Source: Ruditapes philippinarum (taxonomy: Eukaryota). Taken from it: a stretch of DNA of 64,000 nt. Of the stretch, positions 1 through 58,199 are shown one piece after another; position 1 is the stretch's first letter; every line of letters begins with the position of its first letter. The notes beneath the pieces are model-generated. The model saw nothing but the letters and a program-made list of their open reading frames with translations. It was not told the DNA's origin and did not search any database. The DNA lies in NCBI RefSeq assembly GCF_026571515.1, contig NW_026851538.1:86164-150163 (forward strand). The letters run 5' to 3'. The position numbers and the translations under genes were made by a program.

Positions 1-207
1 TGCGTTTGCGACCAGCATGGATCCAGACTAGCCTGCGCATCCGCGCAGTCTGATCAGGATCCATGCTGTTCGCTATCAGTTTCTCAACTTGTTAAAGGGT
101 TTGTAAGCGAACAGCATGGATCCTGATCAGACTGTGCGGATGCGCAGGCTGGTCTGGATCCATGCTGCTCGCAAACGCAATATTATGGTTTTGTCGTGAC
201 GCGGCTC
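1..207 (+). mobile_element. Nested-palindrome MITE, copy 1 (left ~30 bp cut by the window edge)
   Basis: Consensus arms ...gcgaccagcatggatccagaccagcctgcgcatccgcgcagtctgatcaggatccatgctgttcgc, then loop tatcagtttctcaacttgttaaagggtttgtaag, then the inverse arm ending gttttgtcgtgacgcggctc. Right flank atat. Confidence 0.8.
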
Positions 208-9601: not shown

Positions 9602-9799
9602 GAGACATGCCATGACAAAACCAACATAATGGGTTTGCGACCAGCATGGATCCAGATCAGCCTGTGCATCCGCGCAATCTGACCAGGATCCATGCTGTTC
9701 GCTTACAACCCTATTTCAAGTAGAGAAACTGATGCGCAGGCTGGTCTGGATCCATGCTGGTCGCAAAGGCATTACGTTGGTTTTGTCATGATGCAGCTC
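9602..9799 (-). mobile_element. Nested-palindrome MITE, copy 2 (shorter variant)
   Basis: Terminal gagacatgccatgacaaaaccaacataatg ... cattacgttggttttgtcatgatgcagctc. Flanking direct repeat ATTT/ATTT. Lies 23 bp upstream of the KLHDC8-like ATG exon. Confidence 0.8.
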
Positions 9800-10047: not shown

Positions 10048-11015
10048 GTAGGTGTTTATTGTAAACAATCATGGCATATAAAATGATAATAACCTAAAGC
10101 TAAAATTTAGAAAATAAACAGGTAAGTTATTTAAATTCTTCCTGTTGAAGATTTTGTTTTGACTGTCCTAGTAGTATGGACTGAAATTACAAAATACAAG
10201 GTCTTTTTTTATCGAAAACTGCTGGTTCATCTTCATAGTACTAAAAGAAGGAGTTGCAACCATTTTGTAAGAAATTAACTTACTACATGTAAGAAATATG
10301 AATTTTTCTTTATTCATACCTTGTGAAGTAATTTGTAGGCTATATTTGAGTATTGGTAATACATTGTACACCCAGGGCCTTTTCTCCTACAATAGAAGAG
10401 GATACATAAGGTAAGATTCCCTTTAACAAAATTTCTTTCCCTCTAAATTTTCTTCTCTGCTAAGTAATATTCCCCTCTTTATGGGTCCTGCATCCATCTT
10501 CTAGTAAACAAAAAATCGCTGAATGTTTATCTATAGCTACCACTGGAACACTATTTAGGCAGCTCACTCCAGAAAACACTATGTAACTTCATGCTACTTT
10601 AGGATAATGGTATGGATACAGACATAGACATAGAGCCATGGTTTTTGCGAATAGGGACAGTTATTGTTTTTGTGTCATATGTTGAAACTTCACACTCTTG
10701 TTCTCTGTGATTATCTAACATAATAGGCACATGTCGCATAACTCTGTGTTACCTTTTTACTGTTATATATCCCTTTTCTTACTGTCAAGCACTGTGAATA
10801 ATTGAGCGTACAGTCTTATGGACAGCTCCTGTAAAGTTGCTATCGTTATTAACAACTTGTGAAATTAAAGTGGTAGTGGTTTGGAATCAAACTTCCGTTA
10901 CCACTGACTTTTTAGTTAAATACTGTTACATGTACCTCGAGACCTTTGGGCTTCTTTAATACTTAACAGAAGTAAAGCAACACCTAAGATATTTATAGAA
11001 TGTAATGTATTTCAG

Positions 11016-11168
11016 GGGTGGTTGGAGACAAGATAGTGGCTGTGGGAGGTGTTGGAGATTGTCAGCAACCTGTAGATGCTATAGAAATGTACAGTATAAA
11101 AGATAAAAAGTGGGAGAAAATGGACAACCTTCCTAGTGGACTTCTAGGCCTTTCATCAGTCTTGAAAG
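11016..11168 (+). CDS. KLHDC8-like exon 2 (blade 2); G VVGDKIVAVGGVGDCQQPVDAIEMYSIKDKKWEKMDNLPSGLLGLSSVLK
   Basis: Acceptor tttcag|GG and donor AAAG|gtaaat, phase 1 in and out. Kelch GG doublet and W present. Confidence 0.75.
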
Positions 11169-11176
11169 GTAAATTT

Positions 11177-11411
11177 GAGCCGTGCCATGATAAAACCAAC
11201 GTAATGCGTTTGCAACCAGCATGGATCCAGACCAGCCTGTGCATCCGCGCAGTCTGATCAGGATCCATGCTGTTAGCTTACAAACCCTATTACAAGTAGA
11301 GAAACTGATAGCGAACAGCATGGATCCTGATCAGACTGCGTGGATGCGCAAACTGGTCTGGATCCATGCTGGTGGCAAACGTATTATGTTGGTTTTGTCG
11401 TGATGCGGCTC
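11177..11411 (-). mobile_element. Nested-palindrome MITE, copy 3
   Basis: Full-length copy in KLHDC8-like intron 2, starting 9 bp after the exon-2 donor. Flanking ATTT/ATTT. Confidence 0.85.
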
Positions 11412-11928
11412 ATTTTATTGATTTTCTTTCAATACATAGGATTTTTTTTTATAAAACTTTAAACAATTGTTTCTGTATTCATAAAATTAATTCTTACTTA
11501 GTGATGTTAACTCATTTTGTATGACTCTGCATTAAAAGTGTATAACTTTTTAATATAAAACCCTTGTGACACATACATGTAGAATGTCAGAACCCATAAT
11601 TTTACGGGTGAAATGGAATGTCAAGTTGTAATTGTAAATTTAAATAAAATACTGGCCTTACATAATAGTTAAAGGTTGTCTGTCTCATTGTAGGACAAGT
11701 TTGATTGTTCAATCTCTTATCCTCATGAATTGGTTGAAAAGATATACTCTGCTTTGAATTTAGCCTTGAAAAGCATAGAACCTGGTCAAACTGCATGGAT
11801 ATACAGGCTGGCCTTGGGCTATAATGGTGGCAAAAGCCTTTCCACTTTCTACATGTTCTTACCGATTAAGGGCTTAATTAATTATACCATGTAAAACATA
11901 TAATAAAGGTGAAATGCATTATTAACAG

Positions 11929-12093
11929 ATGACAAGGTTCTGGTAATGGGAGGTATGGGTGTTGACACAAATCCGAATGATAGTTTCATGATGATAGATC
12001 TGGATGAAAATAAATGGAAGGGACTAAAACCTATGCCTACTGCCAGATATGCTACATTCTCTTTCATCATCAATGACAAACTATATGTTATTG
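11929..12093 (+). CDS. KLHDC8-like exon 3 (blade 3); DDKVLVMGGMGVDTNPNDSFMMIDLDENKWKGLKPMPTARYATFSFIINDKLYVI
   Basis: Acceptor attaacag|AT and donor ATTG|gtaagt, phase 1. Confidence 0.75.
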
Positions 12094-13303
12094 GTAAGTT
12101 CCTTTGTGTTTTCTGCAAAGACCATCAAAACAAGAATGCTATTTCAATGTTGCAAACCAATTCATACCATATACAGCCTTGTTTTCATTTCCACATCAAA
12201 AAATTTTCACATTTATTTCACTATGAATACTCTGTATTTCACTTGAAAAATATAAAGTTAAATAAAATAAACATACACAAATTTTATCAATGTTTTCAAA
12301 ATTCATTATTTTCAAAATGTTCCCAGGAATGGTAGACTTAACAACAGTTTTTTTCAAACGACTTGAACAGCCTTTTAAGAACGTTCTATCGGAAACTCTT
12401 ATGCGAAAACAAATTTAACCACCAAACATATAGTCCAACTTTATTATTTTCTTGATGAGAATGGAAATCGATATCAATTCTTCGTGCATTGTAGCCTTTG
12501 AAACTCGAACCATGCATTTTTCTACAACAATGCACTCAGAGTTAATATCTATTTCCTAATTAAAGTGACATTATGCCCATTTAAGTTTAAATGGTGAGTG
12601 TACAGATGCAAGTCAAAATAACATTTTGCCATTATTGCTTTCAGTTTATAATTTACTCAAGGAATAATGATAAATATCGTTAGAATGTTTTAGTAACGTT
12701 CAGTTTATAAAAAGAGTTGGGAATTCTTTTAATATTTTATGCAGGTTTTTTATCCTGAACATTTATCATCGTTGATCAATCACTTTTAAAATTTGTAGCT
12801 GATAAAGCTCAAATTTTTGTGAAAGTGACATTATGTCCATCAAGTGATATATTGTGCGTAAACAGGTGAAAGTCAAAAAAGTTTACATTTTGTCATAATG
12901 CATTAATTTAACAATTCACTTTGCATGAACGATATACAACTTGCAATCCCCAAGGACATTTCTGTAAATATCTATTGAAATTTCAATTTATTAAAAGTGT
13001 GAGGCAATCTTTTTATATTTTAGGCAGATATGTATGTTATACTAAATATTTTCCAATATCAACTATTGGTCTATCGCCATTAAAATAATAAGTCCATCTT
13101 TTGAAATACAATGTATATAGTCAATTCAGCTCAACTTGACAATGAAAAAATGAGCATAATGCCATTTTAATAAAAAAACAGAGCATAAATTGTCCCTTGA
13201 ATTAAAAGGGTATCGTAGATCTCATGGTTGCATACTATTACATAAACATTGAAGATATAAATGTATTTAGATCAGTGAGATTTCTAGGATCTATTTATTT
13301 CAG

Positions 13304-18116: not shown

Positions 18117-18480
18117 TTAAAGCTGCACGTCTCCAGATGAGCCAAAATAATTCAAGAAAATCAATATTGATAAAAATATACTAAAATTTTAAGAAAGGTA
18201 AAATCATTGAAGATCCAAGTTACATTTTACATGTTATGTGCGGTTTATGACAGATTTTGCAGTATTTTATCACCATATTTCTACTGCGTTTCTAACACAG
18301 TAAGGGCTGTTTTTGCATAAGTTGACCAAGTTCTGGTGATTTTCTTGGATTGTAAGTGCCGTGGGCAATATGTAAATAACTTTATTTGTTTGCCTCACAT
18401 TATTTTACTTTTAAATGCATTTCCAAAATTTTTAAAGAAAATTAACATGAATCTGGAGGCATGCTGCCTTAACTTCAAAA
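18117..18480 (+). repeat. Dispersed ~360-bp repeat, copy 2
   Basis: ttaaagctgcacgtctccagatgagccaaaataattcaag...catgaatctggaggcatgctgccttaa. A degenerate MITE-like relic follows at ~18600-18680. Confidence 0.55.
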
Positions 18481-19069
18481 TTACCTGATGATGTAAGATC
18501 TGATAATGTAAGAGTCAACCCTTCATTTGCACAATGGATTCGCAGTGCTTTGAAATTGGAACAGCCCTGGGAATTCAATCCCAAATTACAAAAAAGTGAG
18601 CTACCACCAGTATAGAGCCTGGTCAGACTGCATAGATGGCACAAATGGCCTGTCTCTGTACTGGTGGCAAAGGCTCATCATTTCTTTGTCTCTAGTAGGT
18701 TACGGGTTAAATACTCTTGTAAAAGTGTACATTTTTTTCACTGCTAAAATTTGACAAAATTATACTGGTGGTGTCACCCAAAAATGTTTTTGACCTTGTT
18801 GCTGAAAAATATTTGCTATTTTAAAGATTCTTTTTATCTGAGTGAGGGTAATTGTTTTTGTTGAAGAAAATATATATATATTTATTTATCACTTGTAAAC
18901 TGCTGCTATGTGTATGTTACTAAAATAATTATTGTGTTAGTTTAGTTATATTTTACCATTAATTTATATTATAAGAATAATAGCTGTTATATGATTCACT
19001 TATTTTCATTTGTATTGAATACTATGCACCATTTTTAGCTCGACTATTCGAAGAATATGAGAGCTATTG

Positions 19070-25234: not shown

Positions 25235-25478
25235 CTTATAATCCAAGAAAATTACCAAAAAGTGGTCAACATATGCAAAGAGAGCCCTTACTGTGTTGGT
25301 AACGCTGTAGAAATATGGTGATAAAATACTGCAAAAGCAGTTGAACCACATATATGTATAACATTTTAAATATCACTTGGATCTTGAATGATTTTACTTT
25401 TCTAAAATTTTAGTACAATTTTCTCAATATTGTTTTTCTTGAAATATTTTGGCTCTCCTGCAGGCGTGCAGCTTTAAA
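25235..25478 (-). repeat. Dispersed ~360-bp repeat, partial copy 3 (inverted), abutting MITE copy 4
   Basis: Reverse complement of the first ~240 bp of copy 2 (...caatattgtttttcttgaaatattttggctctcctgcaggcgtgcagctttaa). Confidence 0.5.
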
Positions 25479-25479
25479 T

Positions 25480-25725
25480 GAGCCGTTTGCAACCAGCATG
25501 GATCCAGACCAGCCTGCGCATCCGCGCAGTCTGGATCAGGATCCATGCTGTTCGCTTACCGCGCAGTCTGATCAGGATCCATGCTGTTCGCTTACAAACC
25601 CTATAACAAGTAGAGAAACTGATAGCGAACAGCATGGATCCTGATCAGACTGCGCGGATGCGCAGGCTGGTCTGGATCAATGCTGGTCGCAAACCCATAA
25701 TGTTGGTTTTGTCCTGACACGGCTC
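25480..25725 (-). mobile_element. Nested-palindrome MITE, copy 4 (left TIR partly deleted, internal 40-bp duplication)
   Basis: Flanking AAAT/AAAT. Internal duplication cgcgcagtctg(g)atcaggatccatgctgttcgcttac x2. Abuts a copy of the ~360-bp dispersed repeat. Confidence 0.8.
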
Positions 25726-35753: not shown

Positions 35754-35974
35754 GAGCCGCGTCACGACAAAACCAACATAATGCGTTTGCTTCCAGCATG
35801 GATCCAGACCAGCCTGCGCATCCGCGCAGTCTGATCAGGATTCATGCTGTTCGCTGTCAGTTTCTCTACTTGTTATAGGGTTTGTAAGCGAACAGCATGG
35901 ATCCTGATCAGATGGCTGGTCTGGACCCATGCTGGTCGCAAACCCATTATGTTGATTTTGTCGTGACGCAGCTC
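35754..35974 (+). mobile_element. Nested-palindrome MITE, copy 5 (reference copy)
   Basis: gagccgcgtcacgacaaaaccaacataatgcgtttgc...loop gtcagtttctctacttgttatagggtttgtaag...cccattatgttgattttgtcgtgacgcagctc. Flanking AAAT/AAAT. 326 bp downstream of the claudin-like A stop. Confidence 0.85.
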
Positions 35975-40761: not shown

Positions 40762-40931
40762 AGCATCCGCGCAGTCTGATCAGGATCAATGCTGTCCGCT
40801 ATCCGTTTCTCTACTTAAAATAGGGTTTGAAAGCAAACAGCATGGATCCTGATCAGACTGCGCGGATGCGCAGGCTGGTCTGGATCCATGCTAGTCGCAA
40901 ACCCACTATGTTGGTTTTGTCATGACGCGGC
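40762..40931 (+). mobile_element. Nested-palindrome MITE, copy 6 (5'-truncated)
   Basis: Starts inside the left arm (catccgcgcagtctgatcagg). The right arm is complete. Confidence 0.7.
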
Positions 40932-42387
40932 ACATATATACTTCTCGTTCAACGCAGCAGAAAGATGAGTAAACATAAAGTGTTCGCTTGTCAAACTGGT
41001 GCACTTTCATATAGCATGTAGATTTCCCACAGTGAATGTAGAAAACTACCACCATATATCACTGTTGTACAGCGTCCACCGGATATAGCCTCTAAAAACA
41101 CAGAAAACGAAAGTAGAAAGCTGCACAACGAGTACACCATTTAATTTGCAAACAAAAGCAAATATTGCTCTAAAACTAGAAACATTTAGCTTCACAAAAT
41201 TGTTTAGTTTGGAAAAATCGATGAAGTTATGATGAAGAAATAAGTTAAAACATTACCTCGGGTGTACTCGGTGTGCAGCTTTCTACTTTCGTTTTCTGTG
41301 TTTTTAGGGGCTATAACTGGTGGACGCTGTACAACAGTGTATATGACGTAATTGGCAATTTGTATAAAGTATAGTACCAGCGTATTTAGGACGGATGCCT
41401 TATATGCCATTAAACGTTGCTGTTGTTGCTGTTTGTACATTAAATATACTTTGGTCATTTGTAAGTTTGGGTTTTGAAAATAATACTAGAAAATAAAGTT
41501 ATCTGTACAAATATTCTAGAGCATGGTTTGTCAAACCATATACAGTCAATCTTGTATTAAGAGACCGCTCAAGGGTGAGGTCAAAAGTGGTCTCTTAATA
41601 AAACGGTCTCTAATGCAAAACTAGGTTTTCCAACCAAATTTCACGGGTCATAGCATGTACAAATATCAATTAAACATAAGCAGGAAATGAAACAGTTTAA
41701 TAGTTTAATATTTTTATTATCATATATTCCAACATTCCTTCAAAATTCAGACATTTACATATAATAGATATGATATGAATTACTAAATTTATTACTTTAT
41801 TTTAATAACCTATTTTACTGAGTCAACATCAAACAATAAAGCTACAATAATAAGTTGGTTTTTTTTTCTACAAGAATAACATTTTCTACAATGTTTTGGT
41901 TGGTCATTTCAACACATTGGCATTGTGATTAATGTAGCACTATCCTATGTTTCTAACTTTTAACACATTTCATGGTAACCACCTCTTTACCTGAAAAAAG
42001 TCACTAATCTTTGATTACTTTGTATCAACCTCAGCTCTAAAACTCACAAAACTGTCCCGTAAAGTCATTATGCTTTCAAGCCATTTGTCTTGACCTTTGC
42101 TCAATGCTAATTCTTTCAATTTATACAACATCTCATTTGCATCACTCATACTAAAAATGTCCCAGTAACAGTGTTCAAGTCAAATGTTGGAACTGCTTTA
42201 TCAAATATGTACATATATAACAAAAACTTTGAAAACTGATTTCCATGCTTCATACATTCGTTGATTTTCAGACAAAACTATCAATGACTTCTTGAAAATT
42301 TTCAGTTCTGTAGTCCCACAGACTTACTCCAACTGGGAGATAAGTAAGAAGAGTGCACACTCTTCTAGGTCCAAATCATATAATTAT

Positions 42388-42530
42388 GAGCCGCGTCACG
42401 ACAAAACCAACACAGTGCGTTTGCGATCAGCATGGATCCAGACCAGCCTGCGCATCCGCGCAGTCTGATCAGGATCCATGCTGTTCGTTATCAGTTTCTC
42501 TACTTGTAATAGGGTTGGTAAGCGAACAGC
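42388..42530 (+). mobile_element. Nested-palindrome MITE, copy 7 (left arm plus loop only)
   Basis: gagccgcgtcacgacaaaaccaacacagtgcgtttgcgatcagc...loop...gcgaacagca, then unrelated sequence. Confidence 0.7.
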
Positions 42531-43173
42531 AATGGAGCCATACCACGAGATAAGAAAACATACTTACTAATCACTGTATTACTGAGCGTCCGGTTTTGTT
42601 ACATCGTTCTCTTGAGAAGTATTGTACCCAAGAAGAGTGTTAAAGTAAAGCTTGTTAAGTTGTTTTGAAGAATTATCTTCAGTGACCTTGTCTGAAATTG
42701 GAGCTTTAGATGTATTTTCAGAAATTTCTTTGGAACTGATGATTTTGCATAATCTTCGTCTCCCTAATACTTTCTCTTCACGATCCAATGGATGCGTAAC
42801 TTGATGGAATTATATACCCCCTTTTCAATGTGGAAAATGTTGAATATGTTACCAATATGGCCATGTTACAGCATTTAAGAAACAGACTTTCCTTTCCACA
42901 TATAAATAACCATCATTTAGGTTTACAATAATGATGACTTGTTATTTTGTTTCCCCTTAAGATCTCTATAACGCCCTCTAATATTACGTCACATAAAATT
43001 GTGTTCAGGTGAGCTAGACATAAACCAAATTAAAAGAAAATTATGATATTTGATATTTATAAAACTTTTATTATATACAATAAAAAAACAAACAACGTAC
43101 AGTTGTTTTTACACGCATAAAAAATATGCTTTGTTCCAATAATGAGACATTTTAAACTAATGAGGACATAATT

Positions 43174-43407
43174 GAGCCGTGTCACGACAAAACCAACATA
43201 ATGGGGTTGCAACCGGGATGGATTCAGACCAGCCTGCGCATCCGCGCAGTCTGATCAGAATCCATGCTGTTCGCTTAAGACCCTATAACAAGTAAAGAAA
43301 CTAATAGCGAAAAGCATGGATCCTGATCAGACTGCACGGATGCGCAGGCTGGTCTGGATCCATGCTGGTCGCAAACCCATTATGTTGATTTTGTCGTGAC
43401 ACGGCTC
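43174..43407 (-). mobile_element. Nested-palindrome MITE, copy 8
   Basis: Full-length, somewhat more diverged (ggggttgcaaccgggatggattcagacc). Flanks aatt/atat. 150 bp upstream of the LINE fragment. Confidence 0.8.
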
Positions 43408-43559: not shown

Positions 43560-45645
43560 ACTAATTAATGTAGTACTTTGCCTCATCATTTCCTACTGAA
43601 GAGTGGTCATTTAGTTGCAAAATAAGCATAATGTGTCGAAGAACACTGCATCAAATGACTTTGGCAATGACCAGGCTTCTGTTGACTTAGATCAGTTTAA
43701 TTTTAATAGTGTTGATGAAATAGAGAATGAACACTTTGATAGCATGATAACTATTGATGAGGTACTGAAATGTATTTTACATGCAAAGTCTGGTAAAGCA
43801 CCGGGTTATGACAATATACCATGTGAACTACTAAAAATGATTCTGCGTTAGCTTTGCTACATAGTCTTTTTAATAGATGTTTTTTAAGTGGTTCTGTTAC
43901 TACTGCATGGTCTGAGAGTATAATTTCACCAGTTCCCAAGTCTTCAACCACAGACCCACGGGATCCTTTGTCATACAGGGGTATTTCTTTGGCTCCATCC
44001 ATGTATAAAATATACTGCTCTGTTTTAAATAATAGATTAGTAAAATGGACAGCTAGTAATAATATTATAAGTGATGAGCAAAATGGTTTTATAAAAGGTA
44101 AAAGTACAATTGACCAAGTACAGTCCCTAACAAATATTATTGAAACACGTAAACTTAAAAAGTTACAAACATTTACTGCTTTTATAGATTTCAGGAAGGC
44201 GTATGACCTTATAGACCGTACATCACTGTGGCAAAAGTTGCACCAGCAGGTGGGGATAGGGGGCAGACTGTTTCAGGCAATTTCATCATTATATAAAGAT
44301 GTTTAAGTGCTGTATACGCTTAAATGGATTTGATACACCTTGGTTTGATGTAAAATGTGGATTGAAACAAGGCTGCCCCCTGTCTCCAATGCTGTTTAAC
44401 TTGTATATTAATGATTTAGTAATGTATATGAATAATTTAGACAAAGGTGTTTATATTGGTGAAAGAAAAATATGTATTTTGCTATATGCTGATGACATAG
44501 TTTTGTTGGCAGAAAAGGCCAAAGATCTTCAATCCATGTTAGATGCTTTAGCTTTATGGTGTTGTCAAAATAAAATGACTGTCAATTGTGATAAATCCAA
44601 TATTGTTCACTTTAGAGCCGACAGTATTTCTAAAACTGAACATGTTTTTGAATTCAATTCAGAAAAACTGGAAATTGTTCATAGTTATAAGTATCTTGGT
44701 GTCGTACTAAATGAATTTTTGGATTATAATGAAATTGCAAAGACAGTTGCAATGTCTGCCTCTAGAGCACTTGGTCTTGTTATATCCAAAAGTAAGGCAT
44801 TTGGTGGTTTTCAGTACTCAACATTTACAAAACTTTATGATTCAATGGTATGGCCCATAATTAATTACAGTGCCCCGATTTGGGGTGATAGATCTTACTC
44901 GTGCATTAATGCAGTTCATCATAGGGCAATGCGTTACTACTTGGGTGTTGGAAGATACACCCCGAATGTGGCTGTAAGTGGAGAGATGGGTTGGAAACCA
45001 CCAATTGTTAGACAGTGGGTGTCTGTATTTAGACAGTATTTTAGAGTTATGAATATGGATGATAATAGAATTAATAAATCTGTATTTATGTGGTCTAAAG
45101 CAAGTAATGTCAAGAATGGTTTTTACCGACTTAAGAAACTTTTAAAAGATATTAATAGTAGTCACATACTAGAGGCTAATATCGGAAATGCCAAACCTAC
45201 CATATCAATGCTAGAATCTAAACTTATGGAAATAGCAACAAATAAATGGAAGTTATTACTTCAGAGAGAAAATGCCATTAGAGGAAATGGCGGGAATAAA
45301 TTAAGGACTTACAGGAAGTTTAAATCTCAGTTCTGCACTGAAAAGTACCTTACGTCTAAGTTGCCATTTATGTATAGATCAGCCTTTACAAAATTCAGAT
45401 GTGGTATAGCACCACTAAGAATAGAAACAGGTCGTAATGAAAATATTAATGTAATAAATAGAAAATGTTTTAATTGTCCGGACACTGCAGAAGATGAGAA
45501 ACATGTATTACTTTACTGTCCATTATATAATGATGTAAGGAAAGAGTTGGTCTCTGCGTTAGATGATGTATTAAGAAATAGAGATACTAGTATTGTATCT
45601 GATGATGACAAAATGGTTAAAATTTTAGTAGTAAAAACCTAGTAT
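43560..45645 (+). mobile_element. 5'-truncated, frameshifted LINE ORF2 (reverse transcriptase plus CCHC-like C-terminus)
   Basis: Three consecutive ORFs (43615-43851, 43854-44306, 44299-45642) in frames 1/0/1 carry RT motifs: GYDNIPCELLK, PVPKS...RGISLAPSMYKIY, FIDFRKAYDLIDR, GLKQGCPLSPMLFNLYINDL, LLYADDIVLL, and a C-terminal CFNCPDTAEDEKHVLLYCPLY. The first shift sits in an A5 run (~43835). The second is near 44295. No endonuclease domain is present. Confidence 0.7.
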
Positions 45646-48169: not shown

Positions 48170-48309
48170 GAGCGCTTATCAACTCTATTACAAGTAGAGA
48201 AACTGATAGCGAACAGCATGTATCCTGATCAGACTGGGCGGATGCGCAGGCTGGTCTGGATCAAAGCTGGTCGCAAACCCATTATGCTGGTTTTGTCGTG
48301 ACACGGCTC
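48170..48309 (-). mobile_element. Nested-palindrome MITE, copy 9 (internally deleted: left terminus gagcgc joined to loop plus right arm)
   Basis: Flanking AAAT/AAAT despite the internal deletion. Begins 13 bp after the exon-1 donor of claudin-like B. Confidence 0.7.
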
Positions 48310-57964: not shown

Positions 57965-58199
57965 GAGCCGTGTCACGACAAAACCAACATAATGGTTTTG
58001 CGATAAGCATGGATCCAGACCAGCCTGCGCATCCGCACAGTCTGATCAGGATCCATGCTGTTCGCTTACAAACCCTATAACAAGTAGAAAAACTGATAGC
58101 GAACAGCATGGATCCTGATGAGACTGCGCGGATGCGCATGCTGGTCTGGATACATGCTGGTCGCAAACGCATTACGTTGGTTTTGTCGTGACGCGGCTC
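57965..58199 (-). mobile_element. Nested-palindrome MITE, copy 10
   Basis: Full-length, flanking ATAT/ATAT. ~370 bp upstream (in gene orientation) of the FReD N-terminal exon. Confidence 0.85.

Follow-up and report, generated by a model that had tools for sequence, protein, structure and literature searches.

Copy 3 of a short foldback repeat occupies an intron of a kelch-repeat gene in the 64-kb window (the whole stretch of 64,000 nucleotides analysed here), where it is bounded by identical 4-bp sequences. The question raised by this locus is which superfamily of DNA transposons moved the element. The relevant features are the following:

11015 to 11168, plus strand: host-gene exon encoding kelch repeats, situated just upstream of copy 3 and outside the element
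11173 to 11176, no strand: left target site duplication (TSD) of copy 3, ATTT
11177 to 11206, plus strand: left terminal inverted repeat (TIR) of copy 3, GAGCCGTGCCATGATAAAACCAACGTAATG, carrying the Sola1-type terminal motif
11382 to 11411, plus strand: right TIR of copy 3, ...GTTGGTTTTGTCGTGATGCGGCTC
11412 to 11415, no strand: right TSD of copy 3, ATTT

The element sits 8 nt into the intron following this exon. Its left TSD takes up intron positions +5 to +8, and the donor GTAAAT (11169-11174) is left intact. A second kelch-repeat exon was found around 11946-12100.

The element and its copies

BLAST of copy 3 against the 64-kb window revealed ten copies in total, listed here with their coordinates, strands and flanks:

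Copy 1: 1 to 207, minus strand, truncated at the window edge; right flank ATAT
Copy 2: 9602 to 9799, plus strand, internal deletion; flanks ATTT/ATTT
Copy 3: 11177 to 11411, plus strand, 235 bp, near-perfect foldback; flanks ATTT/ATTT
Copy 4: 25480 to 25725, plus strand, GAGC followed by a deletion of about consensus positions 5-30, internal duplication; flanks AAAT/AAAT
Copy 5: 35754 to 35974, minus strand, loop in opposite orientation; flanks AAAT/AAAT
Copy 6: 40763 to 40933, minus strand, right end only (terminal CGGCAC); flank ATAT
Copy 7: 42388 to 42539, minus strand, left end only; flank TTAT
Copy 8: 43174 to 43407, plus strand; flanks AATT/ATAT, the sole mismatched pair in the window
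Copy 9: 48170 to 48309, plus strand, GAGC followed by deletion of nearly the whole left arm; flanks AAAT/AAAT
Copy 10: 57965 to 58199, plus strand, full length; flanks ATAT/ATAT

The unit measured about 235 bp and was bounded by GAGCCG...CGGCTC ends, both of which were kept in seven of the ten copies. Its foldback consists of arms of about 100 bp around a loop of about 30 nt; copy 10, when folded as single-stranded DNA, reached -110 kcal/mol (z = -20 versus shuffled sequences) with about 100 bp paired per arm. No ORF of at least 110 aa overlapped any of the ten window copies. The element is thus below 800 bp, non-coding, bounded by TIRs, dispersed in several copies and flanked by TSDs, which are all the attributes by which MITEs are recognized. 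Pairwise identity among the copies ranged from 76 to 92%, a level that fits an old family in which a quarter of the TSD pairs have mutated after insertion.

The central loop was inverted in copies 1, 5, 6 and 7 with respect to copies 2, 3, 4, 8, 9 and 10. Its direction was the only usable orientation marker among copies, the arms displaying no reliable asymmetry; an arm position reading GCG or GGG was considered for this purpose and rejected, being polymorphic in both arms. The inverted loops may correspond either to whole elements in reverse orientation or to loops that were flipped when the two arms of one element recombined.

In copies 4 and 9 the left end was reduced to GAGC, after which came a deletion with 1-2 nt of microhomology, within intact flanks. 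Since both lack a left TIR, they most probably lost this sequence in place, after insertion. The same had been proposed in the original prediction for copy 9, a reasonable inference given the 4 nt of left end that persist there next to undamaged AAAT/AAAT flanks.

Several arrangements around the copies may be mentioned here. The intact termini of copies 6 and 7 face each other across 1455 bp, with flanks ATAT and TTAT, a pattern that might have arisen by two separate truncation events or by a rearrangement. On its left side, copy 4 is flanked by the end of a different dispersed repeat (25340-25479, terminating in TGCAGCTTTA and also present at 18117-18237 and 1441-1551, both on the minus strand), the MITE having landed at most 3 bp from the end of that repeat. 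Just downstream of copy 8, the region 43854-45642 is a non-LTR retrotransposon fragment with adjacent ORFs of 150 and 447 aa, both displaying RVT_1 matches.

Related copies were also found in other hosts. A peptide from the arm of the element matched 63 short "proteins", all from JGI, and six of their contigs were examined. These six, together with a kelch contig (L082), all belonged to one JGI metagenome, 3300049158. As L082 was 93.6% identical to window 11483-13014, this sample contains DNA of a close relative of the window host. Five complete copies occurred on the six contigs, with flanks ATTT/AAAT, ATTT/ATTT, ATTT/ATTT, AACT/AAAT and ATTT/ATTT. An exact 25-mer from the element core led to 12 contigs (L090-L101) of about 40% G+C (36-43%), binned in Sedimenticola MAGs (GenBank JBEVXV01/JBEVXT01, "MAG: Sedimenticola sp. 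... TCF1"). Since eukaryotic MITEs with Sola1-type ends appear here in MAGs of clam-symbiont bacteria, these contigs evidently derive from the clam host, having been mis-binned into the genomes of its symbiont. This second clam host harboured a sister MITE family. Its 236-bp unit (GTGACGCGTCATGAGAAAATG...) shows homology with the window MITE over the length of the arm and is flanked by ATAT/ATAT, ATAT/ATAT, ACAT/ATAT and ATTT/ATTT.

A metagenome scan with a degenerate 19-mer of the terminus produced 80 loci, all of them chance matches except L012 (MOXH01002810.1). At positions 332-567, this contig carries a sequence distantly related to the MITE, GAGCCGCGTCATGACAAAACC...GGCCC, whose hairpin has another stem; the two flanks of this sequence, AATT/ATTA, differ as 4 bp, and ATT/ATT abuts both ends. 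The sequence of the element found no match in the searched literature and no family in Rfam, where a MIR172 match of 25 bits, below the gathering score of 70, was discarded as due to chance.

Flanking duplications and target motif

The original prediction had reported identical 4-bp direct repeats immediately outside copies 2, 3, 4, 5, 9 and 10, with a mismatch in copy 8 only. Both statements agreed base for base with our reading, perfect pairs occurring in six of the seven two-ended window copies (ATTT twice, AAAT three times and ATAT once). When these seven copies were scanned over boundary shifts from -3 to +3 and repeat lengths from 2 to 8, perfect repeats in six copies were reached at two settings only: 4 bp at the boundary given above and 2 bp one base further out. 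The pairs were then compared with a permutation null, in which right flanks were dealt at random among copies so that the AT-rich flank composition was kept. For the window alone, six matches out of seven arose in 2275 of the 500000 trials (p=0.005). Taking all complete copies together (seven from the window and nine from two other hosts), 12 of 16 pairs were perfect and four mismatched, with a permutation p of 3e-5. The 4-bp flanking duplication is therefore real.

No empty site was recovered, either among sister contigs at copy 3 or by BLAST of reconstructed sites, which likewise returned no paralogous ones. At the orthologous position of copy 3, the closely related contig L082 begins at window 11483, 72 bp beyond the MITE, and the more distant L083 intron was too diverged for alignment.

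A tally of 18 left and 20 right flanks, from window and other-host copies, gave the following outer bases:

Position -4: A in 16/18
Position -1: T in 18/18
Position +1: A in 20/20
Position +4: T in 20/20

Only two flanks departed from A or T at the middle positions, and every perfect duplication fitted A-W-W-T. Given these outer bases around a W middle, the site is A-W-W-T specifically, which goes beyond the "AT-rich" duplication initially described. Two flanks displayed T at position -4 (TTAT in copy 7 and TATT in L089), both from truncated copies. Positions -6 and +6 were mostly A and T, respectively, a hint of a wider palindromic target.

That positions -1 (T) and +1 (A) never vary has a further consequence, overlooked in the original prediction, namely that a 4-bp and a 2-bp description fit every flank equally. 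According to the latter, the element would be one base longer at each end (TGAGCCG...CGGCTCA) and would produce a 2-bp WW duplication at a preferred A-WW-T site, the "4-bp TSD" being an artefact of boundary placement. The equal scores of the two settings in the boundary scan agree with this, as do the only non-A outer bases at -4 (copy 7 and L089), which would then be plain target DNA. Yet, the same invariance is expected under a strict AWWT preference, as the literature describes for both Sola1 and Sola2, and the difference between 2/18 and 0/20 outer-base departures is non-significant. Moreover, curated Sola1 consensus sequences begin at the G and the 4-bp convention is used in the literature. 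To our knowledge, no superfamily combines TG...CA ends with a 2-bp TSD other than TA. We thus regard the 2-bp alternative as unlikely and retain a 4-bp AWWT duplication, a length that held at the predicted boundary in six of seven copies, with the shifted 2-bp reading fitting the same data. The data refute the idea that the flanks are no duplications at all and that the element merely lands in AT-rich DNA where AWWT is common: the window is indeed 68% A+T (about 32% G+C) and all flanks are AT-rich, but the permutation already took this composition into account, the middle two flank bases co-vary between left and right sides, and AWWT represents just 5.7% of window 4-mers.

These duplications also bear on several common superfamilies. 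Tc1/mariner elements duplicate TA, PIF/Harbinger elements TWA, and piggyBac and Kolobok elements TTAA. The first two had been argued against as parents, rightly so, since flanks ATTT, AAAT and ATAT fit neither TA nor TWA. Even with the boundary displaced by one base, a 2-bp reading gives TT, AA or TA, so that Tc1/mariner stays excluded. The 3-bp TWA of PIF/Harbinger was absent, a repeat length of 3 giving 0/7 perfect pairs at all shifts, and TTAA, as required for piggyBac/Kolobok, was present in none of the flanks.

A hairpin module in the arms

Each arm of the MITE contains a hairpin module of about 66 nt, organized as TTGCGACCAG-stem-CCAGAYCAGCCTGCGCATCCGCGCAGTCTGATCAGG-stem'-CTGKTCGC. It was located in the arms of every window copy (for example at 58000-58070 and 58095-58165 in copy 10), on contigs L090-L101 and at 364-436 of L012. 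The central 37 nt (CCAGAYCAGCCTGCGCATCCGCGCAGTCTGATCAGG) were nearly invariant and the outer stem differed between MITE families with compensatory changes, which affected 7 of 26 pairs. The module recurred in MITE families with unrelated termini in at least one other clam host; the L091/L101 family, for example, which displays CATGGGCGTCGCC...GGCGACGCCCTTG ends and non-AWWT flanks, carries it as well. It corresponded to no Rfam family and to no sequence in the searched literature.

A rather speculative interpretation, to which we attach a low probability, is that the hairpin is a selected, structure-dependent mobile module that has moved from one MITE family to another across superfamily limits. 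It would then be more than a passive piece of a single family, and might act as a transposition enhancer, as a small-RNA precursor or as a hairpin bound by a host factor, to name some examples. A functionless origin, by palindrome self-correction or by capture of the module between MITEs, could account for it as well. Elsewhere in the window, two short and diverged sequences related to the hairpin core were observed, at 18596-18680 and 11768-11840. The former is a unit of about 85 bp with GAGC...GCTC bounds and non-matching flanks (AAGT/ATCA), which may be an old miniature derivative.

Superfamily relationships

Sola1 DNA transposons reportedly go back to Bao, Jurka, Kapitonov & Jurka 2009. 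The AWWT duplication has been termed "a hallmark of the Sola1 transposons", and Sola1-derived MITEs with this TSD and GGACCG... ends are known in Bombyx, Rhodnius and butterflies (PMC3845634). More broadly, Sola-type MITEs have been catalogued across insects (iMITEdb, PMC5199201), and both Sola1 and Sola2 are present in bivalve genomes (PMC10294476), Sola1 transposases being widespread there. A 4-bp TSD different from TTAA, presented by the original prediction as unusual among MITEs, is so in frequency, but such Sola MITEs are already on record in these insect studies.

At the level of DNA ends, the MITE was compared with the three curated consensus sequences of autonomous Sola1 elements available for Anadara kagoshimensis, which start with GACTGCCGTCATGAGAAAAGG, GTGTCAGCGCATGAGAAAAAG and GACGTTCCGCAAGCGAAAAGG (Martelossi et al. 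2023, PMC10294476 supplement). The MITE start, GAGCCGCGTCACGACAAAACC, displays CGTCAYGA.AAAA in common with them and in the same register, and 13 of 21 terminal positions were identical, again in register, to Anadara Sola1_21. The motif CGYCAYGASAAAA was common to the MITE termini and the curated bivalve Sola1 consensus sequences.

At the protein level, a profile built from the translated Anadara Sola1 transposases matched 174 proteins at E <= 1e-5. Among the 120 matches listed, most belonged to Pfam DUF7869 and the named ones were nearly all from bivalves (Saccostrea, Ostrea, Mercenaria, Ruditapes, Crassostrea, Pinctada, Mytilus, Tegillarca and Dreissena). One of the matching proteins, P0094 (707 aa, Pfam DUF7869, E=4e-154 to the profile), is encoded by an intact autonomous Sola1 element of 2847 bp, found at positions 7766-10612 of contig L102 and flanked by ATAT/ATAT. 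This contig (48% GC) came from an organism other than the window host. The element possesses 36-bp inverted ends, GAGCCGCCTCACGCGAAAAGG...CCTTTTCGCGTGAGCCGGCTC, the right one closing with CGGCTC. In the same register, its end and that of the window MITE shared 16 of the first 21 terminal bases and 12 of the first 13 (P~2e-5 at fixed register). The sister MITE family of the second host shared 15/21 with each of L102, Anadara_21 and Anadara_22. Contigs L103 and L104 contained a transposase gene and no recognisable TIR; an 11-bp inverted repeat of L104 was considered as possible termini and judged unconvincing, its flanks reading AGCA/GCAG.

The same terminal organization, G-W-S-N3-CGYCAYGASAAAA placed equally far from the end, was thus displayed by the MITE, by Sola1_A.kagoshimensis_21/22/23 and by the L102 element. 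The latter elements differ from it in measuring 2.8-6 kb, in encoding a transposase and in belonging to other species, and their likeness to the MITE stops after about 20-30 bp. As for a longer transposase-encoding element with the very termini of the window MITE, the search suggested by the original prediction found none within the window and the retrieved loci: the best tblastn hit to Sola1 transposase remnants in this material had E=0.08, and a scan of the window with up to 6 mismatches gave no termini beyond those of the ten copies.

Since the TSD motif and the termini both point to Sola1, the MITE is probably a non-autonomous DNA transposon of this superfamily, moved in trans by a Sola1 transposase at AWWT sites. 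A DDD transposase of the Sola1 type (Pfam DUF7869), encoded elsewhere in the genome, would recognise the terminal inverted repeats over about 20-30 bp (GAGCCGCGTCACGACAAAACC...) and excise the element. The transposase would then cut A-W-W-T sites with a 4-bp stagger and integrate the element there, gap repair leaving an AWWT duplication on both sides. Both the trans-mobilisation and the 4-bp stagger are what we infer from termini and flanks.

The closest competitor among superfamilies is Sola2 (or Sola3), from which the MITE could derive by the same mechanism with a transposase of another clade. Sola2 families of Dictyostelium and Polysphondylium (e.g. DFa/PPa) are likewise flanked by AWWT, in the form of ATAT, AAAT and ATTT (PMC3627910), and Sola2 elements do occur in bivalves (PMC10294476). 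The TSD alone fails to separate the two superfamilies, so that the preference for Sola1 is founded on some 20 bp of terminal similarity. Within the end comparison, which covered Sola1 termini only, the terminal 21 bp matched Sola1 in register (up to the 16/21 recorded for L102), and a Sola2 or Sola3 origin appears improbable on that basis. Sola2 elements belong to a different transposase clade and display short TIRs of 12-21 bp (PMC3627910).

Still less probable is a partner of the Ginger type (integrase-related) or from an undescribed superfamily. Ginger2/Tdd elements resemble the MITE in having long TIRs and 4-bp AT-rich duplications (PMC2836005), and a shifted boundary would give the MITE TG...CA ends. 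Yet, such boundaries leave only 2 bp duplicated, and Ginger termini read TGTNR, in contrast to GAGCC here, or TGAGC if shifted. As TSDs, Ginger1 produces CCGG/CCGT and Ginger2 4 bp contained in RTATAY (PMC2836005), a TSD of TATA also being given (PMC3845634), whereas ATTT and AAAT dominate around the MITE; neither the ends nor the target of Ginger2/Tdd were found in the window element. The Sola1 match makes an undescribed family unnecessary. Of the candidates put forward in the original prediction, Sola consequently stood, on account of AWWT and of termini matching an autonomous Sola1 element, and the two others were abandoned.

As a Sola1 MITE, the element can be set beside those of insects (Sola1_NA of Bombyx mori and Rhodnius prolixus, PMC3845634). 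Like them, it is short, non-coding and multicopy, displays a 4-bp AWWT TSD and has TIRs with an initial G and a CCG among their first six bases (GGACCG... in Bombyx, GAGCCG... here); in both cases the termini resemble those of DUF7869-encoding autonomous elements. It differs from them by its host phylum, apparently bivalve molluscs, and by an unrelated internal sequence. The insect elements have short TIRs only, in contrast to the almost perfect foldback with 100-bp arms described here. Unlike the insect cases, the window and the retrieved loci contained no cognate autonomous copy with exactly these termini.

Our results thus support the view that the element is an ordinary mollusc MITE of the already described Sola1 superfamily. 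One small but real gap concerns the superfamily itself, as its "4-bp" TSD is inseparable from a 2-bp duplication by flank sequences alone. In practical terms, this repeat, which reaches 10 copies per 64 kb and in one case lies 8 nt from a splice donor, can now be annotated as DNA/Sola1 and no longer as an "unknown MITE". The combination of AWWT duplications and GAGCCGCGTCACGA... ends provides a straightforward criterion by which additional copies, as well as the autonomous partner, can be sought, and GAGCCGYGYCAYGAYAAAACC can serve as terminus string for extracting MITE copies with their flanks. The general picture of the superfamily is unchanged, and a mollusc example is added to the Sola1-derived MITEs.
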